From Escherichia phage GeorgBuechner, in sequence record MZ501070: a DNA stretch of 44,295 nucleotides; one strand, written 5' to 3'. Position 1 is the first letter of the stretch. The number at the start of each line of letters is the position of its first letter. The notes under the pieces were generated by a model. It did not search any database. It had not been told where the DNA came from and worked only from the letters and a program-made list of their open reading frames with translations. A program made the translations under genes and the position numbers. Positions 3,470 through 24,897 of this stretch are shown piece by piece.

Positions 3470-4556
3470 TCAACATTTGGCGGATCGAATGATTCGCCGT
3501 CACATCTTCACCCAGCGCCTGAGCAATGACCAGGCGCGGAGGGTGCTGGCTATGTGGGAGAAGTTCCGGCCCACATTACTGGGTAAGCTGACCGAGTTAC
3601 TTGATGGCAAAAAGTCCATGAACAACAAGGCACTTACCACACTGTTAACGCAACTCGACAAGACCGTAAAAACGGAACTGCGCGCCGAGTTTAAAGTGCT
3701 GGCGGAGAGCCTGCAGGAGTTCGCCGACACCGAGGCTGATTATCTCGCTGACACACTAACGGCAGCGATCCAGCCCGCTGTCGCCGTACCCGCTGTTGAA
3801 GTAGTTGGCGTTGTTACCGGCGCGCAGATTGCAGCGACGGCAATGAAAAACCCGTTCCAGGGTAATACTATGATGCAATGGCCTGATTCCCTTTCCGAGT
3901 GGACCAGGACGCAGATCGGCAATCAGGTGCGCGCCGGATTCATCCAGGGCAAGCCAACGATGGAAATTATCGCGGACGTGAGGCGCGCGCTCGGCGGGCG
4001 TAGTGCGCAAGCAATCGCAAGCGTTGTTAAGTCCGCGGTCAACCACTATGCGGCGACCGCCCGCGAATTAATGGTAAAAGCTAATGACGATATTCTCGAA
4101 GGTCGCCAATGGTTGGCTACATTGGACACTCATACTTCCCCTATGTGCCAGCTACGCGATCGCCTGTTTTATCCTGTTGACGTCACTCCCGACACCAAAG
4201 GCAAGCGCGGCGGGAAAGTGGTGGCGGGATCACAATATGGCGCTGGTCCGGGCAAGCTGCATTATTGCTGCCGTTCGACGGAGACGTGGAAAGTCAAAGG
4301 TATGGAAGATTGGCCCAGTGGTAAGCGTCCGGCACTGAAGGCTGACGCGGGCCGATTGCTTAGTGAGCAGGTCGACGCGCAAACTGATTTCTTCTCATGG
4401 GTGCAGCGCCAGCCGCGCCATATTCTGGAGGAATTATATGGGGTGCAGCGCGCCGATCAGATTATGCGCGGCGTGAAAGTGCCGAAGATGTTCACCGATA
4501 CTGGCGAACTAATGACTATTGCGCAGCTTAAAAACCGGGGGCTATGGCGTGATTAA
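3453..4556 (+). CDS. Head morphogenesis protein (Mu F / SPP1 gp7-like)
   Basis: 367 aa; contains ATLDTHTSPMCQLRD resembling the conserved Mu-F domain core; overlaps portal stop. Confidence 0.8.
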   Translation: MAKTINQHLADRMIRRHIFTQRLSNDQARRVLAMWEKFRPTLLGKLTELLDGKKSMNNKALTTLLTQLDKTVKTELRAEFKVLAESLQEFADTEADYLADTLTAAIQPAVAVPAVEVVGVVTGAQIAATAMKNPFQGNTMMQWPDSLSEWTRTQIGNQVRAGFIQGKPTMEIIADVRRALGGRSAQAIASVVKSAVNHYAATARELMVKANDDILEGRQWLATLDTHTSPMCQLRDRLFYPVDVTPDTKGKRGGKVVAGSQYGAGPGKLHYCCRSTETWKVKGMEDWPSGKRPALKADAGRLLSEQVDAQTDFFSWVQRQPRHILEELYGVQRADQIMRGVKVPKMFTDTGELMTIAQLKNRGLWRD

Positions 4557-4857
4557 GTATGCAGCGATTGGGTTGGTAATAGGTCTGGCGGTTGGATTCT
4601 GGCAGGGTGACTCCTACCGCACTGGCGTTGAGGCGAGAGCGGCGCAAGAAGCGCAAGCGAAAGCCCAACGGCAGCAAACTAAGGTTGTCGAGGGGGCCGT
4701 GCAGGCAGAACAGGCCCGCGACGTGGAATACCGGACTATCACGAAAGAGGTTGTAAAATATGTTACGCGTCCTAACCGTCCTGATTGCCGTTTTGATGAT
4801 GAGCGCGTGCGGATCAAGCAACGTGCCATCGACGCCGCTAACCGAGTCGGTTTATAG
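4519..4857 (+). CDS. i-spanin (Rz-like) candidate; start could be ATG 4519 or GTG 4549
   Basis: N-terminal TM segment IKYAAIGLVIGLAVGFW followed by Q/A/E-rich predicted coiled coil and C-terminal Cys; contains an embedded +1-frame lipoprotein ORF. Confidence 0.55.
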   Translation: MRSLKTGGYGVIKYAAIGLVIGLAVGFWQGDSYRTGVEARAAQEAQAKAQRQQTKVVEGAVQAEQARDVEYRTITKEVVKYVTRPNRPDCRFDDERVRIKQRAIDAANRVGL

Positions 4858-4990
4858 ACCTCCTTGCACCTTTGAGAATGCCTCGGCGGACCCAGACGAA
4901 GACTTGCTGGTTGATATTAAAAATATGGAGTGTGGTGCGAAGCTGAGGGCGCAAGTGCTGGATTTGCAGAAAATAATTCGGGGGCCGTGA
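4760..4990 (+). CDS. o-spanin (Rz1-like outer membrane lipoprotein) candidate, starts inside the i-spanin ORF in the +1 frame
   Basis: Signal peptide MLRVLTVLIAVLMMSAC with lipobox-like MSAC; +2 residue Gly; short Pro-containing mature part with Cys; stop lies in a terminator hairpin. Confidence 0.55.
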   Translation: MLRVLTVLIAVLMMSACGSSNVPSTPLTESVYRPPCTFENASADPDEDLLVDIKNMECGAKLRAQVLDLQKIIRGP

Positions 4991-5003: not shown

Positions 5004-5768
5004 TTAGCGCGGAATACCGCAAATCTCGTTTAGTGTTTTCACGTCCAGCGCCACCGCCGTGGACTTCGGCTTGTCCGGGTAAGGAATGAACTGTTCCACT
5101 TCAGGCCACGCCTTGATCAGCTTCTTATCGGTATTGTGCATATCCAGCACGCCGGTAACAGTTAGTTTGAACGCGTCATACTTAGCACGCAACTCACGGC
5201 GGGCCTTGTCGTTACGGTCCAGGCGCTTACAGAAATCATGGTCCGCCGGGTAGTCTATACGACCGCGTGGTATATAGATCGGCAGCGCTTTCCCGTCGTC
5301 GTCGACTTCGCACACTGACGCTAACAAAATTTCCTCATACCCTGGCACAATATCGCCGAGATCGGGAGACAGTTTATTCATGTATTTATACTCCCAGTAT
5401 CCGCGATGTACTCGGAATCGGTGTCCGTCTCCGCTCAATGACACGGTACGGACGTTTCCACCTGCGTTGATTTCGAAAGTGGCGTCGTAAACGCTGCCTA
5501 TACCATATGGGTTGTCGGCGTCATGTCTATACGTCGCCTTATTGGTGTACACACAGACGCCGTACATCTTCGACGGGTCATCGCCGATTTCTTCAATGCG
5601 CTCACGTAGCTCGGCGAACGTATGAATGCCTTCCGGCATACAGTCCAGCGTAATGGCGTACGCCAGATTTCGAGAGTCCATCATGATTGATTTGGCTTCG
5701 GTCGCGATTTCGTGGTCGCGCAGGATGTTAGCCAGAATCTGGTTTTTAATGTCTTTTGTCAGTCTCAT
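5004..5768 (-). CDS. Hypothetical protein encoded in reverse orientation inside the head gene cluster (moron-like accessory gene)
   Basis: 254 aa from ATG at 5766-5768 (MRLTKDIKNQ...) with SD ACGAGGA; the longer track ORF 5004..6215 is a low-complexity N-terminal extension overlapping the scaffold gene and is rejected; no recognisable motifs. Confidence 0.6.
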   Translation of the reverse strand: MRLTKDIKNQILANILRDHEIATEAKSIMMDSRNLAYAITLDCMPEGIHTFAELRERIEEIGDDPSKMYGVCVYTNKATYRHDADNPYGIGSVYDATFEINAGGNVRTVSLSGDGHRFRVHRGYWEYKYMNKLSPDLGDIVPGYEEILLASVCEVDDDGKALPIYIPRGRIDYPADHDFCKRLDRNDKARRELRAKYDAFKLTVTGVLDMHNTDKKLIKAWPEVEQFIPYPDKPKSTAVALDVKTLNEICGIPR

Positions 5769-16572: not shown

Positions 16573-17180
16573 CCACGTTTAAATTGTACGGCGTCTTAGG
16601 GCGTCGTTTTGGTAAAGTGCATAAGCTGGACTGCTTCACACCGGGCGAAGGAATCACCGGCTTGTGTGTGAAGTTGCCAGGGTTACAAGACTTTTTAATG
16701 TCAGCCCACCTGGACAACATGATGTTCAAAGTGCGCAAGGGCAATCACACCATGACCGGCTACGATGAGCTGGGCGAGTTCCACGGCGACCGCGTAGTGA
16801 CCATCGCGCCGGTTATGACGGGCGCAAAAAGCGGACTGGGCCAATTGCTGGCGGGTGTAGCGATCGTGGTGGCGTCGTTCTATACCGGAGGGCTTGCGAC
16901 TGCCGCTTTCGGAGCTTCAGCGGCGACCGCGGCCTCTATCGGCGCAGCGACGTTTTCGTTCGGGATGTCGATGGCGCTGGGTGGCGTTATGCAATTGTTA
17001 TCACCGCAACCGAAAGGATTGCAGACACGGCAGGACGTGGATAACAAGGCGTCGTACGCGTTCGGCGGGCCGGTGAACACAACCGCGCAAGGCACGGCAC
17101 TTGGTGTATTATGGGGCGAGCGTGAGATCGGCGGCGCTATTATTTCCGCCGGAATCGTAACCGAGGACTTGAACGAATGA
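16563..17180 (+). CDS. Tail assembly protein I-like
   Basis: 205 aa; hydrophobic Gly/Ala-rich C-terminal half; immediately upstream of the J-like gene. Confidence 0.7.
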   Translation: MAMTTFKLYGVLGRRFGKVHKLDCFTPGEGITGLCVKLPGLQDFLMSAHLDNMMFKVRKGNHTMTGYDELGEFHGDRVVTIAPVMTGAKSGLGQLLAGVAIVVASFYTGGLATAAFGASAATAASIGAATFSFGMSMALGGVMQLLSPQPKGLQTRQDVDNKASYAFGGPVNTTAQGTALGVLWGEREIGGAIISAGIVTEDLNE

Positions 17181-20100
17181 CGATTATCTACGACGTCACG
17201 GGCCATAAAGGCGGCGGCGGAAAACAGCACACCCCACAGGAGACGCCAGACAGCCTGCATTCGCTGGCTAAAATCCGCATCTTGCTCGCACTGGGCGAAG
17301 GGGAATTCGAAAGTATTACCAGCGCAAGCGAATTACGGCAGCGCGTATATCTGGACGGCACGCCGATCCAGAACGCCGATCTGTCGGAAAACTTCCCCGG
17401 CGCGCGCGTGGAGTTCCGCCCCGGCACACAACACCAGGACGTGATCCACGGATTTTCAGCGGTGGAAAGTGAACAATCTGTCGGCGTAAAACTGGAAAAC
17501 GGCACGCCGTGGGTGCGCCAGATTAATGACACCAGTCTTGACGCCGTGCGCATTCGAATCGGCATTCCGGCCCTATACACTAACGAAGATAATGGCGACC
17601 TGGTGGGCGGGCGCATCGACTATAAGATCGTTGTGTATACGGATAACGCCGACCCGCGTGAGTTCAGATTCGCCGCCGTTGGTAAAACAATGTCGCTATA
17701 TGAGCGCGACCACCGCATCGAATTACCGCCGAACGTGAATACCGGCTGGCGAGTGGAGGTGCACCGCATAACGGCAGACTCCACATCGGCGAAAGTGGTT
17801 AATGATATCCGGGTGCAATCCATCACTGAGATTATCGACGCCCGCCTGCGATACCCGCTAACCGCGCTGTTGTTTGTGGAGTTCGACGCCAAAGCGTTCC
17901 AGAACATCCCGCGCGTGTCCATCAAGTGCAAAGGCCGCAAAGTTCTAATACCGAACAACTACGACCCGATTAATCATACCTATTCCGGGGACTGGGACGG
18001 CACGTTTAAACGCGCATGGACGGATAACCCCGCGTGGCACTGGTACGATATTTGTATTACTGAGCGCTTCGGCCTCGGTCGGCGTATCAAACCGCAAATG
18101 TTAAACCGGTACGCGCTCTACCAGATTGCGCAGCGCTGCGATCAGTTGGTCAGCGACGGCAACGGTGGTCGAGAAATCCGCTTTAAGAATGATATGTACA
18201 TTCAATCACAGACGGATGCCTGGACCGTGCTTAAGGATTTAGCCGCTATCTTTGCCGGTATGACCTGGTGGGGAAATCAGATGTTGAATATCGTCAGTGA
18301 CCAGCCGGTCGCAGCGGTATCGCACACCATCACCAACGCCTCGGTCATTGATGGTCGATTCGACTACGCGTCCGGTAGCCAGAAAACTCGGTATTCCACA
18401 TTCGCGGTAGCATACGGCAACCCGAAGAACCACTATGAAGATGCCATTGCTACGGGGCAGCGTGTCGAACTGGTACGCCGCCATAAGATTAACCGTCTGG
18501 ATATAACGGCGATCGGCTGTACGCGTGAGTCAGAAGCGCAACGACGTGGGCACTGGGCGCTAATCTCCAACCAGCTTGACCAGCAAGTTAGCTTTAAGGT
18601 TGGCATGGAAGGGCTATTTTTTATTCCGGGTAGCGTAGTCGCGATCGCGGATACAAACATTTCTGGCGGCTTCGAGACACGCGGCGGTCGCCTGTTGTCG
18701 GACCCTGGCACGCGTACCGTGCTTAACACGGACAGCGAAATCACGTTCCGCCTTGGTGATAAATTCCTGGTACGCACCGATAGCGGTAATGTGGAGACCC
18801 GCGAGATCGCCAGCGTCAACGGCAACAAGGTTACGCTAAAAACCGCACTGGACGCCGACCCGATTCCGGACCAGCCGTTTTGCGTTGATGGTGACGATAT
18901 CCAGTTGCAGAAGTTCCGCATTACCGACCTGGAATATGACGACTCTACCAGCACTTTTTCAGTGCGCGGGATCGAGTACAACGATAGCAAATATGATGCC
19001 GTTGATAATGGCGCTCGCCTTGATCCGGGCATCTTTACTCAAGTGCCTGACGGCGTAATGAAGGGGCCGGAGTCCGTGACCATCACCCCGTCGCAGATTT
19101 CATCGCAAGGCCAGCTAATCACCAACGTGGATATTGTATTCCCGCCGGTGAAGGATGCCGTGGTGTATGAAATCCAGTGGCGACGTACCAGCTTGCAGAA
19201 TATGGCGGTCCAGTGGGGAAACGACTGGGTAAACATCCCCCGTACGGCTTCGAACGGCGCGCACATCCCTAACGTGTTCTCCGGTAACTACCAAGCACGC
19301 GTCCGCGCAATCGGTATGGGCGAGATTTCGTCCCCGTGGGTATCGTCCGCTATCACGCCGGTGGAAGGTCGTCTCGGCGGGCTTAACGCGCCTATCATCA
19401 CCAACGCGATTTCGGGCCTCCATCAAATTTTGTGGAAGTGGAACCATAACAACGCCGCGACGGATATTTCGTACACCGAGCTTGAGGTCCGCAAGACGGG
19501 CGAAACGGAATGGAAGTTCTTAACCAACGTCCCATATCCGGGGGCGGAGTATGCGCAAACGTCGCTGGAGTTCGGCATCTACCAGCAGTTGCGCGCCCGC
19601 GTAGCGGATAAAATCGGCAACCTGTCGGACTGGTCCGCCCCGTTTGAAGGCCAGGTGAGTGACAAAGTCGACGAATACATGAAGGGGCTTGATGACGAGT
19701 TCTTGACTTCCGAGGACGGTAAACGCTTCCAGGAAGCGATCGACACCATGCCGCAAGGCATTTATGAGTCTATGCTCACCGACGCACAGCAATTATTTAA
19801 CGCCCGCGCCGAGTACAAGGGGATTTATGCAGAAATCTCGGTCGCGTATAACGTGGCGGCAGATGCCCACCAGGCGGTAGCGCAACTGGAAACGTTGATC
19901 GGTACTCGCCTTGACGATGCTGAAGCGGCAATCCACACGTTGCAGACGGCGCAAAGCACGCATGAACAAGCGTTCGCCCAGTACCAGCAAACTGTTGCCG
20001 CTAAGTTCGGGGAGCAGGAAGCCGCCATCCAGCAGGTACAAACGGCAACGGCAGACGTAGCGGGCGCGCTGGCTGAGTACAAGACCCAGGTTGCGGCGCA

Positions 20101-20596
20101 GTTCGGCCAGCAGTCCGCCGCGATCGAGCAGAAGATGACGTCCTCGTTTAACCATGCTGGAGGCAGCGCCACATATAGCCTTAAGGCCGGCGTGACGTAT
20201 AACGGGACTTACTATGACGCTGGTATGCAGCTTTCAGTTGTGACGTCTGGCAGCGCGGTTAAATCGCGTATCGCGTTCAAAGCCGACCAGTTCTACATCA
20301 TGCACCCATCTAATGGGTCGCTTTCGTCCGCGTTTATTGTTGACGGCGGGCAGGTGTATATTGACACGGCACGCATCAAGAATGCGTCCATCAACTTCGC
20401 GCAGATCACAGACACGCTGCAATCGAATAACTACGACGGCAGCACGCGCGGATGGCGCTTAGGTAAGGATGGAACGTTTATCAACCTGGGGACCGGAAGC
20501 GGTGGTGGTACAAAGCAGACCAACACCAACTACAGCGTTAAAGACGCGAACGGTGTTTTACGCGTGCAAATTGGCGAGCTTACTGGTCGCTGGTAG
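17177..20596 (+). CDS. Tail tip / host specificity protein J-like (central tail fibre)
   Basis: 1139 aa ORF last in the M-L-K-I-J block; size and position match lambda J-type proteins. Confidence 0.85.
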   Translation: MTIIYDVTGHKGGGGKQHTPQETPDSLHSLAKIRILLALGEGEFESITSASELRQRVYLDGTPIQNADLSENFPGARVEFRPGTQHQDVIHGFSAVESEQSVGVKLENGTPWVRQINDTSLDAVRIRIGIPALYTNEDNGDLVGGRIDYKIVVYTDNADPREFRFAAVGKTMSLYERDHRIELPPNVNTGWRVEVHRITADSTSAKVVNDIRVQSITEIIDARLRYPLTALLFVEFDAKAFQNIPRVSIKCKGRKVLIPNNYDPINHTYSGDWDGTFKRAWTDNPAWHWYDICITERFGLGRRIKPQMLNRYALYQIAQRCDQLVSDGNGGREIRFKNDMYIQSQTDAWTVLKDLAAIFAGMTWWGNQMLNIVSDQPVAAVSHTITNASVIDGRFDYASGSQKTRYSTFAVAYGNPKNHYEDAIATGQRVELVRRHKINRLDITAIGCTRESEAQRRGHWALISNQLDQQVSFKVGMEGLFFIPGSVVAIADTNISGGFETRGGRLLSDPGTRTVLNTDSEITFRLGDKFLVRTDSGNVETREIASVNGNKVTLKTALDADPIPDQPFCVDGDDIQLQKFRITDLEYDDSTSTFSVRGIEYNDSKYDAVDNGARLDPGIFTQVPDGVMKGPESVTITPSQISSQGQLITNVDIVFPPVKDAVVYEIQWRRTSLQNMAVQWGNDWVNIPRTASNGAHIPNVFSGNYQARVRAIGMGEISSPWVSSAITPVEGRLGGLNAPIITNAISGLHQILWKWNHNNAATDISYTELEVRKTGETEWKFLTNVPYPGAEYAQTSLEFGIYQQLRARVADKIGNLSDWSAPFEGQVSDKVDEYMKGLDDEFLTSEDGKRFQEAIDTMPQGIYESMLTDAQQLFNARAEYKGIYAEISVAYNVAADAHQAVAQLETLIGTRLDDAEAAIHTLQTAQSTHEQAFAQYQQTVAAKFGEQEAAIQQVQTATADVAGALAEYKTQVAAQFGQQSAAIEQKMTSSFNHAGGSATYSLKAGVTYNGTYYDAGMQLSVVTSGSAVKSRIAFKADQFYIMHPSNGSLSSAFIVDGGQVYIDTARIKNASINFAQITDTLQSNNYDGSTRGWRLGKDGTFINLGTGSGGGTKQTNTNYSVKDANGVLRVQIGELTGRW

Positions 20597-20632: not shown

Positions 20633-20935
20633 ATGGCATTCGGTATCGCAACGTGGGACGCGCAAGGACGCCCCAACAACTACGGCATTAAACCGGTAAG
20701 CGTGATCGGAAGGATTCATCTTGCGGAAGGACAAAAATCAGGCGCATGGTCATTCCCGGTACCGGCGGGGATGAAGGTCGGATATGTGGTCGCACTGGAT
20801 AAAGGCGCGGTCGGGCCGGGACGCAGAATAACCGCCAGCGGGAACACTATCACGGTTTCCGCGGCAAGTGCGGTAGGTGGCGGGGTTTACTCCGCATCTG
20901 AATGTGACGTTATTGTTTTTGTGGAGCGAGCATAA
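20633..20935 (+). CDS. Hypothetical protein (tail-associated by position)
   Basis: 100 aa ORF with SD-like GAGG upstream; located between J and fibre genes. Confidence 0.45.
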   Translation: MAFGIATWDAQGRPNNYGIKPVSVIGRIHLAEGQKSGAWSFPVPAGMKVGYVVALDKGAVGPGRRITASGNTITVSAASAVGGGVYSASECDVIVFVERA

Positions 20936-21609
20936 TGGCTAATTACGGCGCGCTGATTGACTTACCAAACGGCAACCCGTTTATCACGCCAGAATCGACG
21001 CCGTTTTGTCTATTCCGCCGTGTGGTTGTTGGGTCTTCGGCTAACGGCACTGCGCAGTCGGCGGCTGCCGATATTAATTTGGGGGGTGACTACCCTGCAA
21101 TAGCGTTTGTGAAAACTACGCACACCGCCCAGCCGACCGTCGTAGGGTCTTCTCGCGTTGGTAATGTGGTGAAGGTGAGCGCCAGCAATCCATTTAGGCA
21201 AGGATTCACGATGACAGCATACATCTTTGCCATATTCCCACAGACCCTTCCGCGGTGGGGCTTCGCTATTTGGGATAAGACGGGGAGGCTAGTGCTGACG
21301 AACGAGAGCCGGGTACTAAGCGATTTAGTTACCGTCGGATCGCCAGGCGCTAACGGGGGGATTAACATTGACCAGACGCTAAACGGCAGCTACGCCGTCG
21401 CTCCGGGCATATTGGGGTCTACGCTGATCCGTTTTTTTGTGCAGGGCCAGCCGCAGGTGATATCGGTAACGGCGTACACGGGGGCCAGATTTGATGGGTC
21501 GCGAACGCGTATATCGGCAGCGTCGTCGGGGAACGCCACGGGGGGTGTGGTGGGGTATACTAACAACGGCAACGCGATTATGGCGATTAACACTGCCAAT
21601 TATGATTGA
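20935..21609 (+). CDS. Hypothetical protein (tail-associated by position)
   Basis: 224 aa, Gly/Ser/Thr/Asn-rich; ATGA-type overlap with preceding gene. Confidence 0.45.
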   Translation: MANYGALIDLPNGNPFITPESTPFCLFRRVVVGSSANGTAQSAAADINLGGDYPAIAFVKTTHTAQPTVVGSSRVGNVVKVSASNPFRQGFTMTAYIFAIFPQTLPRWGFAIWDKTGRLVLTNESRVLSDLVTVGSPGANGGINIDQTLNGSYAVAPGILGSTLIRFFVQGQPQVISVTAYTGARFDGSRTRISAASSGNATGGVVGYTNNGNAIMAINTANYD

Positions 21610-21612
21610 AGA

Positions 21613-21634
21613 AGGCCCCGAAAGGGGCCTATTT
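21613..21634. terminator. Bidirectional stem-loop between convergent genes
   Basis: AGGCCCC-gaaa-GGGGCCT; stop codon of the minus-strand lipoprotein gene lies at the edge of the stem. Confidence 0.5.
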
Positions 21635-21847
21635 GCAGGTTGTGCTTTTGAAATGGTCAACTGACACATACTGGAAGTTAAACGGGTATCCCGCCCTGAG
21701 CATTTTGTGGCCGCTAAAATCCGCGACCCCAAACACGGGGACTGAGTAATCCATGCCGCTATTCTGGTACGTCGCGTCGCAGACTTTAGCTGGCATGTTG
21801 GCACAACCGGACAAAAGAACTGCACAAATCATAATTAAAGTTTTCAT
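21629..21847 (-). CDS. Small lipoprotein, candidate receptor-blocking superinfection-exclusion protein (Llp/Cor-like)
   Basis: 72 aa from ATG 21845-21847 with SD AGGGGA; signal peptide MKTLIMICAVLLSGC with lipobox LLSGC; two further Cys in the mature part; convergent with tail genes and adjacent to the fibre gene. Confidence 0.6.
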   Translation of the reverse strand: MKTLIMICAVLLSGCANMPAKVCDATYQNSGMDYSVPVFGVADFSGHKMLRAGYPFNFQYVSVDHFKSTTCK

Positions 21848-21878
21848 GGTATCATCCCCTATATTTGGTTGAGTTTTA

Positions 21879-21906
21879 GTATTACACCGCTCAATCAAGA
21901 ATGCAA
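21879..21906 (-). promoter_or_regulatory. Candidate sigma70-type promoter for the lipoprotein gene
   Basis: Minus strand reads TTGCAT - 16 nt - TAATAC about 30 nt upstream of the ATG; the -35 overlaps an ATTGGTTGCA motif. Confidence 0.35.
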
Positions 21907-21911
21907 CCAAT
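21902..21911. promoter_or_regulatory. TGCAACCAAT motif immediately upstream of the tail fibre SD
   Basis: aTGCAACCAATttACGAGGAtttagctATG; motif 17 nt from the fibre start codon. Confidence 0.5.
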
Positions 21912-21927
21912 TTACGAGGATTTAGCT

Positions 21928-23730
21928 ATGGCAGCGGGTACGCTCTCCGTAACGAACAATAGCAAGGCGGTAGTAGGGGTTGGCACAACGTTTACCGCGT
22001 TCAAGGCTGGCGACTTCTTATCACTGGTGGTGGGGCAAGTGCCTTATACAGTGGCGATCGCGTCCATTGAAAGCGCAACCGCTCTCACGCTAGTGTTGCC
22101 GTTCGATGGCCCTACGGCAACCGGACTTGCCTGGGATGGTATTAATCGCGATACCATGTCACTGGCAACGATGGGCGTTACCGTACAGGCGCAAAAAGCA
22201 TTGCGCTTGATGATTGCAGATGAAAACAACTGGCGTGCAATCTTCGGCGACGCTGAAGAAATCACAGTGACGTTACCTAACGGGCAAGTCATGCAGGGTA
22301 TGTCATGGGGATACCTGTCGGAATTGCTTAAGAACGTAGATCCGGTTGAGATGCGCGACCTCGCAGCGCAAGCCGAAGCATCGAAATCGGCAGCGCAAGG
22401 ATTTCGTAATGAGGCCGAAGGCTTCAAGAACGATACCAATACAATCAAGACGCAGACCAACCAGATTAAGGCGGATACGCAGGCTATCCACGACGCCACC
22501 AATACCATCAAGACGCAGACCAACCAGATTAAGACGGATACGCAGGCCATCAAAGACCAGACGAACCAGATCAAGACTGACACTGGCGTTATGAGGGACG
22601 AGGCCAACACCGCGAAGGCGGACGCGCAAGCTGCCAGCACTGCCGCACAGGAATTCCGCGACCAGGCAGAGGAGTGGGCGCAAAGCGTTAACGCGGATAA
22701 CCTGCTAACCAAATCCGGCAACCTGGCAGGACTTGCGGATAAAACTGAGTCGTGGGCAAACCTTATGCCTGCAGGCCCGCTACGAGTCGGCGGTGACCCC
22801 AATGCGGATCTGGATGCGGCAACTAAGCGTTGGACGTTGGGTTTATTAGACGCAGGCACGGCGAATACGTCGTGGTCGGTAATCAACGGCGACGCCACTA
22901 AACCGCCAGCGGGCACTACGGCAGACGGCGGAAGCATTATATCTGAATATCGTGTAGGTACTTCTGTACATTCGGAAGCAAAGCTGCGCGTCCGTGCGAC
23001 TATCGGCGGTGAGACTTACGCCCGCTTGGCGATCACCAACCTGGAGACGGCGCAGAGTTCGGGCATCGACTTTAACACCAAAGGCGAGATGACCTTGCCG
23101 GGCAAGTTTACGGTGAACAGTCCAGGGTCAGATGTCGTCGGCAGCTTGTCCTTAAGCCGCGGGTCTTACCTGCAATTTGCATTCGAACCGTACTACACCG
23201 TAGCCGAAACCGTGCCGAACGACGTTGTAGGCGGTAGGACGTTCTTCGAACCGGCACTAGTCAAGAGCGGCACTCGATATTTTCGCCTGTTTATGCGACG
23301 TAAGGATGGGAACCGTACCGGCGAAATTATGCTTAACTTCCCGACTACCGTATCGGGGACTATCGCGCTGCAAGGCACATCCGGCCGCGAGTATAAGAAA
23401 GATATTGCCGATGCGGACGCAAGCGAAGCTATGGACCGCATTAACAGCCAGCGCCTTGTTAACTTCGTGTATAAGGATGATGAGCAGGCCCGCCAGCGCT
23501 TCGGTATTATCGCCGAAGAAGCGGAGTTAATTGCGCCGCAGTACGTTAAACACCACGAGTTCCCGATCGAGGATATTCTCGACGAAGACGGCAACAAGAT
23601 CGGGGAGAAGATGACGGACCGCCCATCCATCGACGTTAACCCGATCGTAATGGACTTGATGGGATGTGTTCAATATCTCAATAAGCAGGTGGAGGATTTG
23701 AAGGCCGAGATCGCGGCGTTGAAGAAATAA
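21928..23730 (+). CDS. Tail fibre protein with C-terminal S74-type intramolecular chaperone domain
   Basis: 600 aa from ATG 21928 (track ORF starts at 21901 inside the motif); internal 63 bp tandem repeat encoding NTIKTQTNQIK...; C-terminal GTSGREYKKDIADADASEAMDRINSQRLVNFVYKDD resembles fibre chaperone domains. Confidence 0.8.
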   Translation: MAAGTLSVTNNSKAVVGVGTTFTAFKAGDFLSLVVGQVPYTVAIASIESATALTLVLPFDGPTATGLAWDGINRDTMSLATMGVTVQAQKALRLMIADENNWRAIFGDAEEITVTLPNGQVMQGMSWGYLSELLKNVDPVEMRDLAAQAEASKSAAQGFRNEAEGFKNDTNTIKTQTNQIKADTQAIHDATNTIKTQTNQIKTDTQAIKDQTNQIKTDTGVMRDEANTAKADAQAASTAAQEFRDQAEEWAQSVNADNLLTKSGNLAGLADKTESWANLMPAGPLRVGGDPNADLDAATKRWTLGLLDAGTANTSWSVINGDATKPPAGTTADGGSIISEYRVGTSVHSEAKLRVRATIGGETYARLAITNLETAQSSGIDFNTKGEMTLPGKFTVNSPGSDVVGSLSLSRGSYLQFAFEPYYTVAETVPNDVVGGRTFFEPALVKSGTRYFRLFMRRKDGNRTGEIMLNFPTTVSGTIALQGTSGREYKKDIADADASEAMDRINSQRLVNFVYKDDEQARQRFGIIAEEAELIAPQYVKHHEFPIEDILDEDGNKIGEKMTDRPSIDVNPIVMDLMGCVQYLNKQVEDLKAEIAALKK

Positions 23731-23736
23731 ATAGAA

Positions 23737-23758
23737 GGGGCCATGCGGCCCCTTTTTC
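23737..23758. terminator. Bidirectional terminator between fibre gene and minus-strand early cluster
   Basis: GGGGCC-atgc-GGCCCC followed by TTTTT. Confidence 0.7.
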
Positions 23759-24333
23759 TAGTTTGAGTTTTCCCAGTCCATTTTGCGCCGCACTAGCGGG
23801 CTTTCGTAATATTCCTTGCCCTCAACTTCCACTAAGGGCCAGTCATTAACAATGACGTATGGTTCCGCGATATCTTCAATAACGCCGTGCGCGCTTTGTG
23901 GCCCGAACGATACGCCCACCAGGATAACACCGGCAACTCTACGGGTGAGATACTCGCGAGCGCAACGTGCTTCCACCAATCCGCGACGGATGCCACTGGT
24001 GGCCTTAACCTCGTAGGTCCAGACGGCATCGATCACATGCTCTCGGAAGTCGGGGCCAGATTTAACCTTGCGCTTACCGACCATGATGATATCGCCGCGG
24101 TCGATGGTATTGGCGCTGAACAAGCCGGTACGCATGAGCAAGCCTTGCGGGATACAACTGCGCCCGCCTGCTTGCCCTTCAAGGTACATGCCCGCAAACA
24201 TTTCGCCCAGCACACCGACCAGTCGGCTTTGCTTGCACGCGTCGGACTTTAAGCGCCATTGGTCAAACTCGATGCTTGCTATCATTGCCGCCAGGTGGAA
24301 TTGTTTACCGGATATTTCATATTCGCCGTACAT
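23758..24333 (-). CDS. Hypothetical protein (possible PD-(D/E)xK-like fold, weak)
   Basis: 191 aa; SD GAGGA; segment GDIIMVG ... YEVKA could be a D ... E-x-K nuclease motif (inference only). Confidence 0.5.
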   Translation of the reverse strand: MYGEYEISGKQFHLAAMIASIEFDQWRLKSDACKQSRLVGVLGEMFAGMYLEGQAGGRSCIPQGLLMRTGLFSANTIDRGDIIMVGKRKVKSGPDFREHVIDAVWTYEVKATSGIRRGLVEARCAREYLTRRVAGVILVGVSFGPQSAHGVIEDIAEPYVIVNDWPLVEVEGKEYYESPLVRRKMDWENSN

Positions 24334-24375: not shown

Positions 24376-24897
24376 TTATTTCAGTGCGCTACGTACCAGT
24401 GTTTTTTCCATGTTGCGGAAGTCTTCCGGCGTCATGAGGATCTTGGACCCATCCTCGCCAGTGAGCACGACCATCGGCTGGACGTCCTGGGATACGACGC
24501 CGAAATTGGCGGCTTTGACAGTCTTGCCCGCCGATGCCGAAGGATGCCACGTTCCGCCGGTGGCGATGGGCCAACCTTTAAGGCTGTCGTATTGCGCTGC
24601 CGTTGTATCGACCTGAATCTCATCATGCACGGTCATGTGGGATTCGCCCAGCAAGGCCGCATACGCTACCAGGTCGACGATATTGTCTTCCTGGTGCTTA
24701 CGGTGCTGGCGCACCAGCTTCAGGCAGATCAAGAAGGTCCAGGCTTCTTGCTCGGTAAGGTCGCGACCGGTAAGCGCGTTAAACACGGCGGCAATTTGTT
24801 TCGCGCTGCGTTCCTCTTTCGCGTTGTCATAGCCGTTTTCTTTTCCGCGCTGTTCCATAGTGGTGGCGGCGTTTTTGCAGTATTCGTATGCTTTCAT
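24376..24897 (-). CDS. Hypothetical protein
   Basis: 173 aa ORF; upstream leader contains hairpin GTTGGGGGC-aatacc-GCCCCCAAC (24916-24939) and motif palindrome. Confidence 0.5.
   Translation of the reverse strand: MKAYEYCKNAATTMEQRGKENGYDNAKEERSAKQIAAVFNALTGRDLTEQEAWTFLICLKLVRQHRKHQEDNIVDLVAYAALLGESHMTVHDEIQVDTTAAQYDSLKGWPIATGGTWHPSASAGKTVKAANFGVVSQDVQPMVVLTGEDGSKILMTPEDFRNMEKTLVRSALK

Follow-up and report, generated by a model that had tools for sequence, protein, structure and literature searches.

We identified a cor gene in the genome of Escherichia phage GeorgBuechner (MZ501070), a Dhillonvirus whose whole sequence of 44,295 nucleotides was analysed and is referred to here as the window. 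The gene very probably encodes the superinfection-exclusion lipoprotein of an FhuA-dependent Dhillonvirus, with a proposed block of FhuA similar to that exerted by Llp of phage T5. A preliminary description had proposed an Llp/Cor-type protein, which is supported by profile matches, by complete identity to the Cor protein of phage BMA1 and by a position in the host-recognition cassette as in T1, phi80 and N15. The gene is already annotated in near-identical phages and the family is well studied, so that the identification is a correct and ordinary finding. In the literature searched, no experiment on the Cor protein of the window or of any Dhillonvirus was found. The features relevant to the analysis are:

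4519..4857 and 4760..4990: overlapping i-spanin/o-spanin pair (PHROG 2536, E = 5.5e-36; PHROG 5672, E = 2.1e-24)
17177..20596, plus strand: GpJ-like central tail tip protein of 1139 aa, encoded by the opening gene of the host-recognition module
20633..20935, plus strand: gp22-like accessory protein, 100 aa (PHROG 557 'outer membrane protein', E = 1.1e-32)
20935..21609, plus strand: gp23-like protein, 224 aa, putative FhuA-specific receptor-binding protein (RBP) (PHROG 425 'membrane associated protein', E = 2.8e-69)
21614..21629: GC-rich hairpin GGCCCC-GAAA-GGGGCC, 6-bp G/C stem and 4-nt loop, between convergent stop codons
21629..21847, minus strand: cor gene, 72-aa prolipoprotein plus stop, ATG start
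21848..21927: divergent intergenic region of 80 nt containing the cor SD and the candidate promoter
21855..21860, minus strand: cor SD AGGGGA, 7 nt before the ATG; AGGAGA in relatives
21879..21906, minus strand: candidate promoter TTGCAT-16-TAATAC, with TTGCAT at 21901..21906
21928..23730, plus strand: lateral tail fibre gene, 600 aa (PHROG 1980, E = 1.9e-131; annotated as tail fibre in relatives)

The predicted 72-aa product is a bona fide full-length Cor-family lipoprotein. It is identified as Cor because it matches curated profiles, is 100% identical to the annotated Cor of BMA1 and shares 40-49% identity with the characterised Cor proteins of T1 (49%), phi80 (40%) and N15 (42%); identity to Cor of JLBYU37 is 91.7%. 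Residues 1-72 align with positions 1-75 of the 78 positions of PHROG 1119 ('Cor superinfection exclusion protein', E = 1.5e-27), and residues 2-71 align with positions 2-76 of the 78 positions of NF047972 ('phage exclusion lipoprotein Cor'), an NCBIfam equivalog with a cutoff of 31 bits, at a score of 58.4 bits. A Pfam-A scan of the protein detected no family at E <= 1, and PHROGs and NCBIfam were therefore needed for the assignment. A single-sequence word-indexed search reached only six close relatives, and a profile built from T1, phi80 and N15 Cor was needed to retrieve 210 homologues, many of which bear the name 'phage exclusion lipoprotein Cor'. Six residues (C15, C23, C71, A52, G53 and P55) are invariant in 53 Cor homologues. 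The remaining residues of the RAGYPF core are conserved in at least 90% (Y54, F56) or at least 70% (R51) of them. C23 and C71 are the two further cysteines that had been noted in the mature part of the protein.

The product of the minus-strand ORF 21629..21847 translates as MKTLIMICAVLLSGC followed by ANMPAKVCDATYQNSGMDYSVPVFGVADFSGHKMLRAGYPFNFQYVSVDHFKSTTCK. Residues 1-14 form the signal peptide, followed by the lipobox LSGC and a 58-aa mature protein with the RAGYPF motif, which bears out the 72-aa lipoprotein precursor of the preliminary description. The n-region consists of K2, the hydrophobic core is 10 residues long and the lipobox reads L-S-G-C with Cys15. The residue at +2 is Ala, and the lack of an Asp at this position is an outer-membrane sorting signal. 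In its length and its lipobox the precursor agrees with the Cor family, whose precursors are of about 70-80 aa. A longer 93-aa ORF with a TTG start (21629..21910) was rejected, as the additional residues lie ahead of the signal peptide and no homologue has them. The start was placed at 21847 because the TTG at 21910 would bury the signal peptide and because all homologues begin with MKT or MKK.

MKTLIMICAVLLSGC satisfies a PROSITE-PS51257-like lipoprotein rule with Cys15 as the predicted lipidation site. This rule is loose: 12 candidate starts pass it in the window, compared to 3.7 ± 2.4 in shuffled sequences, and only the cor ORF and the o-spanin at 4760..4990 look like real lipoproteins among them. 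The looseness of the rule, together with a marginal PHROG 'Rz-like spanin' match (E = 0.088, signal peptide only), could be taken to point to an unrelated small lipoprotein, such as an Rz1-like o-spanin or a Bor-like moron, or to an ORF carrying a lipobox by chance. Such an origin is hardly credible in view of the strong full-length Cor profile matches and of the variation of cor among its relatives, which reads as a coding signature. Of the 60 nucleotide columns that vary among six Dhillonvirus copies, 36 are at third codon positions, and the nine nucleotide differences from BMA1 cor, which fall in eight codons, are all synonymous. Synonymous changes dominate, and cor appears to be under purifying selection. 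An Rz1-like o-spanin was rejected as the spanin role is filled by the pair 4519..4857 / 4760..4990 and the spanin match is at the level of the signal peptide only. Lambda Bor or another Pfam moron was rejected as the Pfam-A scan gave no Bor-family model. By these sequence comparisons the reading as an unrelated lipoprotein or a chance ORF is already effectively refuted.

The cor gene is convergent with the 224-aa gene at 20935..21609 (plus strand) and divergent from the lateral tail fibre gene at 21928..23730 (plus strand). The gene order gpJ - gp22 - gp23 - cor is common to the window, T1, phi80, N15, JLBYU37 and BMA1, with gp22/gp23 identities of 52-100%. The GpJ-like protein is 35-38% identical over its full length to the J proteins of T1, phi80 and N15 and 98% identical to those of JLBYU37 and BMA1. 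The gp22-like protein is 100% identical to its JLBYU37 counterpart and 54-73% identical to gp22 of T1, phi80 and N15, and for the gp23-like protein these values are 98.7% and 52-63%, respectively. This cassette of gpJ, gp22-like, gp23-like and cor genes, which is closed by cor, marks FhuA-targeting siphophages. The reading of the gp23-like gene follows the RBP-locus concept, and the lateral fibre has been assigned to glycan binding (PMC8594841). The gene had been described as lying beside the tail fibre gene, with reference to T5, phi80 and N15, in which genes of small receptor-blocking lipoproteins adjoin those of the receptor-binding proteins. The adjacency to the tail fibre gene is correct, but the receptor-binding partner is most likely the gp23-like protein encoded at 20935..21609, on the 3' side of cor, and not the product of the tail fibre gene, which lies 5' of cor. 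This fibre gene is a neighbour of cor and lies outside the exclusion cassette. A strong terminator hairpin is found past the lateral tail fibre gene, at 23733..23756.

JLBYU37 is experimentally FhuA-dependent (PMC10373560), and from the 98.7% identity of the putative RBP to that of JLBYU37 we infer that the phage of the window depends on FhuA as well. In BASEL phages, Dhillonvirus included, the cor cassette is linked with FhuA use (PMC13164509; PMC8594841). A Cor/Llp-type lipoprotein directed at another target (e.g. BtuB, LptD or YncD), matching another receptor specificity, was also considered. Cor-like proteins occur in BtuB-targeting phages too (PMC13164509), small siphophages swap their RBP loci among seven receptors (PMC8594841) and Rtp45, a presumably unrelated small lipoprotein, does the equivalent job on LptD (PMC12685063). 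Nevertheless, a target other than FhuA is very unlikely: the adjoining gp22 and gp23 alleles are nearly or fully identical to those of FhuA-dependent JLBYU37, the protein passes the cutoff of the NF047972 equivalog and the full three-gene cassette has been found in FhuA users only (PMC13164509). The gp23 allele of BMA1, which lies beside an identical Cor, is only 52% identical to that of the window, whereas the JLBYU37 allele is 98.7% identical. Over its C-terminal 125 aa, this BMA1 allele shares 99% identity with the allele of phage bob, which is reported to be FhuA-dependent (PMC10373560).

The Cor proteins of the Dhillonviruses BMA1, JLBYU37, Envy, bob, rolling and UAE_MI-01 are 72 aa long and are 100% (BMA1) or 85-96% (the others) identical to that of the window. 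The strand arrangement, the 80-nt upstream region and the terminator hairpin are shared as well, and there is no difference of substance. These genes are already annotated as 'Cor superinfection exclusion protein' or 'super-infection exclusion protein'. The Cor proteins of T1 (ST30) and other Drexlerviridae share 49-57% identity, the 8-residue spacing from the lipid Cys to the second Cys, the RAGYPF motif and the C-terminal Cys. T1 cor likewise runs towards the gp23 homologue from the opposite strand, and a terminator separates the two genes; it adjoins a gpJ-gp22-gp23 cassette in a phage with FhuA as receptor. T1 differs in belonging to the Drexlerviridae and not to Dhillonvirus, and upstream of its cor gene there are a 527-nt intergenic region and genes for recombination instead of a lateral fibre gene. 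Cor of phi80, N15, HK022 and mEp167 has 40-42% identity, the three cysteines, RAGYPF, the cassette and the FhuA target in common with Cor of the window. In these temperate phages, by contrast, cor has the same orientation as the tail genes and is expressed from the prophage, and the protein has a 3-residue insertion between Cys1 and Cys2. There it acts in lysogenic conversion, whereas in the phage of the window, which is of a virulent genus, it would act in exclusion during the lytic cycle and in protection of the progeny. Exclusion of FhuA phages and inactivation of FhuA by Cor of phi80, N15, mEp167 and T1 have been shown genetically, according to the accounts in which this work is cited. The lipoproteins Rtp45 and Bas18_0026 of LptD-targeting siphophages are likewise small periplasmic superinfection-exclusion lipoproteins. 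Their genes lie next to the RBP locus and downstream of gpJ, and the proteins distort the outer loops of their receptor from the periplasmic side; their target is LptDE and not a TonB-dependent transporter (PMC12685063).

T5 Llp is probably a distant homologue of Cor, best described as a member of the same superfamily but of a different family. Llp matches PHROG 1119 too (E = 1.1e-19), and an hhalign comparison of the Cor profile with Llp gave a probability of 91% (E = 1.1e-6) over 73 columns, end to end and with all three cysteines aligned. The BLASTP match between Cor and Llp was weak (22.7 bits over 40 residues, signal peptide included), and a PDB sequence search with Cor of the window returned nothing even at E <= 10, Llp being too distant for phmmer. 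An AF2 model of Cor (mean pLDDT 83.6, about 93 for residues 21-70) is all-beta. A Foldseek search of this model against the PDB gave no match at E <= 0.001; the best E-value (0.032) was obtained with Tudor domains, and the best compact match was Llp chain 8A60_B (TM 0.54/0.61, rmsd 3.0 Å over 59 columns, E = 0.067). Tudor/chromo-type small barrels score like Llp against the model in this search, and the modelled similarity between Cor and Llp is suggestive only for its full-length coverage and low rmsd. In BFVD, the matches that follow Dhillonvirus Cor are small proteins (75-94 aa) of phages DT571/2, slur09, Providencia PSTCR5 and Proteus Stubb, which we take to be T5-like phages; three of these proteins bear the name 'Lipoprotein'. 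The grouping of Llp with Cor is justified because of the shared PHROG, the end-to-end profile alignment and the best compact PDB match, and published work likewise groups the two (PMC9586334; bioRxiv 10.64898/2026.03.26.714494; PMC13164509).

Llp is a small lipoprotein of the outer membrane, as predicted for Cor. Its lipid Cys and its two disulfide cysteines are at positions equivalent to those of the three Cor cysteines, and its gene lies beside the gene of an FhuA-binding RBP, with its own promoter, in a virulent phage (annotation; PMC9586334). It differs in sharing only about 22-26% identity with Cor and in having no RAGYPF motif. Its partner RBP, pb5, is unrelated to the gp22/gp23 cassette, and by name Llp falls outside the Cor equivalog. 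Beside cor of the window no pb5 (oad)-type RBP gene was found, the neighbours being the gp23-like (PHROG 425) and lateral fibre (PHROG 1980) genes. The mechanism of Llp is solved, with a crystal structure of FhuA-Llp and a reverse-allostery model (PMC9586334), and that of Cor is not.

We propose that cor would form a transcription unit of its own, read from the conserved 80-nt intergenic region against the direction of the late tail operon. Its expression would be independent of the virion genes and probably earlier, a timing suggested by gene orientation only. The precursor would leave the cytoplasm via Sec, receive its lipid at Cys15 and be processed by signal peptidase II, and an intramolecular disulfide between Cys23 and Cys71 would tie both ends of a small beta-barrel, like C11-C58 in Llp. 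Mature Cor would then bind the periplasmic face or the plug of the TonB-dependent transporter FhuA and lock it with the extracellular loops EL7/EL8 folded inward, resulting in loss of phage RBP binding. For T5 Llp such an inward-fold lock of FhuA has been shown structurally (PMC9586334), and locking by Cor is inferred by analogy.

In an alternative that we consider unlikely, Cor would exclude FhuA phages in a way that does not involve reverse allostery of the Llp type, either via or together with other outer-membrane proteins or by a block after adsorption, at DNA entry. Arguijo-Hernandez (2018) reportedly found that Cor requires further outer-membrane proteins or interacts with them. The mechanism of Cor has explicitly been called unresolved (bioRxiv 10.64898/2026.03.26.714494), Cor has been described as a blocker of phage DNA entry (PMC12373910) and the identity between Cor and Llp is about 20-25% only. 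On the other hand, the profile alignment is full-length with all cysteines matched, both proteins belong to the same PHROG and the predicted fold of Cor resembles FhuA-bound Llp. Cor is also reported to inactivate FhuA transport (Uc-Mass 2004, as cited elsewhere), which fits direct jamming of the transporter. An Llp-like block of FhuA is the preferred reading.

The preliminary description had attributed to cor its own sigma70-like promoter and a strong SD. Both are present and plausible, the SD as AGGGGA at a distance of 7 nt, but 'strong' is weak by consensus for the SD, and the candidate promoter matches the sigma-70 consensus poorly (3/6 + 3/6). The TTGCAT-16-TAATAC motif was not called in a consensus promoter scan. 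As 0.15 patterns of exactly this kind are expected by chance per window, the motif alone proves little. It can alternatively be read as TGt-AATACT (21878..21886, minus strand), an extended -10 with a 17-nt spacer. The intergenic region is better conserved than the coding region, with about 10 of 80 columns variable compared to 60 of 216 among six Dhillonviruses. Two sites called by the scan with a score of 9/12, within or overlapping the 5' end of cor (21808..21835, plus strand; 21855..21828, minus strand), were disregarded, as their density is as in shuffled sequences (3 against 3.1 expected).

At the other end of the gene, the GC-rich hairpin is flanked by the stop codons of the gp23-like gene (TGA, 21607..21609) and of cor (TAA, 21629..21631), with its final base doubling as the final base of the latter stop codon. 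The fold has z-scores of -3.3 on the plus strand and -2.0 on the minus strand; a terminator scan did not call it, the T-tract being below threshold. Among relatives the stem is conserved and the loop is inverted, and in T1 a rho-independent terminator is annotated at the equivalent place, between cor and gp23. The hairpin is likely both a bidirectional terminator and a mosaic junction.

An identical Cor accompanies two RBP alleles sharing only 52% identity, and the alleles are swapped at this hairpin; cor would in this view be a receptor-directed, RBP-agnostic module that recombines independently of the RBP. The Dhillonvirus Cor clade could have a distinct exclusion spectrum or mode. This is conceivable because Cor of the window has 49% identity to T1 Cor, no 3-residue insert, a location on the opposite strand and its own conserved extended -10-like promoter, but we regard this reading as a whole as quite improbable. 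For example, closure of FhuA loop 8, which is needed by the JLBYU37-type and T5 RBPs, could lead to cross-exclusion of T5-like but not of T1-like phages.

Beyond correct annotation the finding has little import, and the copy in the window adds nothing over the identical BMA1 protein already deposited. Any variant of Cor that expresses well could serve as a reagent for obtaining a structure of Cor together with FhuA. The presence of a complete FhuA host-recognition and exclusion cassette in this Dhillonvirus makes FhuA predictable as its terminal receptor from sequence. Infected cells would be expected to exclude the phage of the window as well as other FhuA-dependent phages and to lose ferrichrome uptake, and released progeny would be spared futile adsorption to FhuA on cell debris. 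Cells infected by the phage or engineered with cor are expected to resist T1, T5 and phi80, which matters for phage cocktails and for engineering of T1 resistance.

A small gene was identified on the strand opposite to the tail genes:

21629..21847, minus strand, cor, ATG start, 72 codons plus stop, product MKTLIMICAVLLSGCANMPAKVCDATYQNSGMDYSVPVFGVADFSGHKMLRAGYPFNFQYVSVDHFKSTTCK

The preliminary description had extended this locus further because a mechanical open reading frame (93 amino acids) reaches a TTG at 21910. This longer frame was rejected, as it would bury the signal peptide and the extension is absent from all homologues. The lipoprotein precursor of 72 amino acids and the two additional cysteines of its mature part (C23 and C71) were borne out. 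The N-terminus, composed of Lys2 and ten hydrophobic residues followed by an L-S-G-C lipobox with Cys15, is a textbook lipoprotein signal and lipidation is predicted from it. The residue following Cys15 (+2) is Ala; under established rules of lipoprotein sorting, Cor is therefore expected to be carried to the outer membrane by Lol. Cor passes a PROSITE-like lipobox rule, but this rule is loose (12 candidate starts pass in the window compared to 3.7 ± 2.4 in shuffles), so that the lipobox by itself is unconvincing. Among six Dhillonvirus copies of cor, 36 of the 60 variable nucleotide columns in the coding sequence are third codon positions. The copy of the relative BMA1 differs from that of the window by nine nucleotides, and the eight codons affected are all changed synonymously. 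cor is a real gene under selection.

The proposed Llp/Cor-type identity was supported by full-length profile matches. PHROG 1119 (Cor superinfection exclusion protein) matched the protein end to end (E = 1.5e-27), and the NCBIfam equivalog NF047972 (phage exclusion lipoprotein Cor) scored 58.4 bits (curated cutoff 31). A Pfam scan of the protein matched no family of any kind. An o-spanin or unrelated lipoprotein was considered and rejected, given the spanin pair elsewhere in the window, the lack of a Pfam match and the full-length Cor profile matches. A tblastn search of 50,697 phage records matched 237 records, including the 'Cor superinfection exclusion protein' of Escherichia phage BMA1 (100% identity), copies across the genus Dhillonvirus (85-96%) and copies in T1-like phages, phi80, N15, ES18 and HK lambdoids (40-57%). 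BLASTP identity was 49% to Cor of T1, 42% to that of N15 and 40% to that of phi80. A profile search yielded 210 homologues, many of which bear a Cor name ('phage exclusion lipoprotein Cor', 'cor protein'). When 53 of these homologues are aligned, M1, C15, C23, A52, G53, P55 and C71 never vary, and G14, G31, V36, G40, Y54, F56 and F66 hardly do. This defines a conserved anatomy: the lipid cysteine, two cysteines, one close to either end of the mature chain, and the (R)AGYPF core. The gene is a known one: it already carries the annotation Cor in phages that are identical or nearly so, and its family is curated and well studied. Several homologues (P0020, P0022, P0108) were named 'uncharacterized protein YceK' by JGI, and a distant link to this chromosomal lipoprotein family is possible; Pfam YceK/DUF1375 did not match the window protein.

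The window amounts to a practically complete genome of a Dhillonvirus; many members of the genus share 92-95% nucleotide identity with it, and none is identical. The following genes surround cor:

17177..20596, gpJ-like tail tip protein gene, head of the cassette
20633..20935, gp22-like gene, 100 amino acids, PHROG 557
20935..21609, gp23-like gene, 224 amino acids, PHROG 425, putative receptor-binding protein (RBP)
21614..21629, hairpin GGCCCC-GAAA-GGGGCC between the convergent stop codons, its last base being also the last of the cor stop codon
21928..23730, plus strand, lateral tail fibre gene, 600 amino acids, PHROG 1980, next after cor

cor lies inverted between the gp23-like gene, with which it is convergent, and the fibre gene, from which it is divergent. 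The order gpJ-gp22-gp23-cor is common to T1, phi80, N15, JLBYU37 and BMA1, with gp22 and gp23 identities of 52-100%. In the temperate phages cor points the same way as the tail genes. T1 resembles the window in having cor on the opposite strand, with a terminator between it and gp23. Family, anatomy and cassette position of Cor are established in the window. The three-gene cor cassette is specific to FhuA-targeting phages in BASEL, Dhillonvirus among them (PMC13164509), and the association of Cor with FhuA-targeting Dhillonviruses has already been published. The fibre downstream of the cassette is considered lateral and glycan-binding (PMC8594841). Its residues 1-311 are 89% identical to the 805-amino-acid fibre of JLBYU37 and residues 312-600 are 95% identical to residues 517-805 of that fibre; about 205 central residues are therefore missing from the window fibre. 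Identity to the BMA1 fibre is only 44%, and the N-terminal third contains TNQIK(T/A)DTQAI-type heptad-like repeats.

The window gp22 shares 100% identity with its JLBYU37 counterpart, and the window gp23 98.7%. JLBYU37 is FhuA-dependent and requires FhuA loop 8 (PMC10373560), which suggests FhuA as the receptor of the window phage. That Cor targets another receptor is very improbable given these cassette alleles. BMA1 encodes an identical Cor beside a gp23 allele only 52% identical (gp22, 73%); over the C-terminal 125 amino acids this gp23 is 99% identical to that of phage bob, also reported as FhuA-dependent (PMC10373560). The same Cor thus travels with two divergent FhuA-linked RBP alleles, which fits a protein whose target is the receptor and not the RBP. 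Compared with BMA1, JLBYU37 and bob, a mosaic junction lies at the hairpin (21607..21631): the stem is kept with its loop in inverted form (TTTC versus GAAA), and on the far side of the hairpin the sequence is of one or the other of two allele types.

The sigma70-like promoter suggested for cor, TTGCAT-16-TAATAC, occurs once (21879..21906, minus strand), but agrees with the consensus at just 3+3 of 12 positions and went uncalled in a consensus promoter scan. Shifted by one base, TG-t-AATACT with a 17-nt spacer reads to us as an extended -10-like element; about 0.15 matches to such a pattern are expected by chance per window. More telling is the conservation of the intergenic region (21848..21927, 80 nt), with about 10 variable columns among the six phages versus 60 of 216 in the coding sequence, and with TTGCA and GGTG(T/C)AATACT kept among relatives. 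A Shine-Dalgarno sequence AGGGGA (AGGAGA in relatives) precedes the ATG by 7 nt. The hairpin folds with z = -3.3 (plus strand) and -2.0 (minus strand), and T1 has an annotated rho-independent terminator at the equivalent position. Because of intergenic conservation, Shine-Dalgarno sequence, promoter-like motif and hairpin, cor is plausibly a stand-alone transcription unit.

Further loci of the window were:

4519..4857, plus strand, i-spanin, PHROG 2536 (E = 5.5e-36), overlapping the o-spanin gene
4760..4990, plus strand, o-spanin (MLRVLTVLIAVLMMSAC...), PHROG 5672 (E = 2.1e-24), overlapping the i-spanin gene
5004..5768, minus strand, 254-amino-acid gene between spanins and scaffold protein gene, PHROG 1965 (E = 6.6e-61)
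23758..24333, minus strand, conserved gene directly after the fibre terminator, PHROG 10558 (E = 1.2e-118)
24376..24897, minus strand, conserved gene after the preceding one, PHROG 9871 (E = 3.8e-110)

The o-spanin is the only other convincing lipoprotein of the window; the spanin pair lies between a head-morphogenesis gene and the scaffold gene, outside any obvious lysis cluster. The gene at 5004..5768, inverted inside an otherwise plus-strand head module, is a second inverted, moron-like insertion in addition to cor. The gene at 24376..24897 also matches, more weakly, families labelled 'phosphofructokinase'.

Llp, the lytic conversion lipoprotein of T5 (query sequence 100% identical to the T5 records), matches the same PHROG 1119 (E = 1.1e-19). 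Pairwise BLASTP between Cor and Llp is weak (22.7 bits); hhalign of the Cor profile against Llp gave a probability of 91% (E = 1.1e-6, 73 columns) with all three cysteines in register. An AlphaFold2 model of Cor from the 53-sequence alignment (mean pLDDT 83.6, about 93 over residues 21-70) has five beta strands and is of high confidence in the mature domain. Foldseek found no significant match to this model in the PDB; the sole full-length, low-rmsd match was Llp in the FhuA-Llp crystal (8A60_B; TM 0.54/0.61, rmsd 3.0 Å, 59 columns, E = 0.067). In BFVD, the best matches after Dhillonvirus Cor were 75-94-amino-acid proteins, three named 'Lipoprotein', of DT571/2, slur09, Providencia PSTCR5 and Proteus Stubb, which we take to be T5-like phages. 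These profile, fold and BFVD results agree with the published view that Cor and Llp are one family, probably alike in action (PMC9586334; bioRxiv 10.64898/2026.03.26.714494; PMC13164509).

Llp is a periplasmic lipoprotein. It engages the FhuA plug in a non-native conformation and draws the loops EL7 and EL8 inward, over the RBP site; the C11-C58 disulfide of Llp is essential (PMC9586334). Given the homology, the same mechanism is proposed for the window Cor. Lipidated Cor would be placed at the inner leaflet of the outer membrane, with C23-C71 as a putative disulfide counterpart of C11-C58, and may bind FhuA directly as Llp does, closing EL7/EL8 and covering the RBP site; from its orientation, cor is presumed to be expressed earlier than the virion genes. 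As the solved mechanism is that of Llp and not of Cor itself, Cor might instead act in concert with further outer-membrane proteins or block DNA entry, which we consider unlikely. For a virulent phage, the gains expected from the proposed Llp-like action would be that competitors are excluded during infection and that progeny are spared adsorption to debris, benefits argued for Llp and superinfection exclusion lipoproteins generally (PMC12685063).
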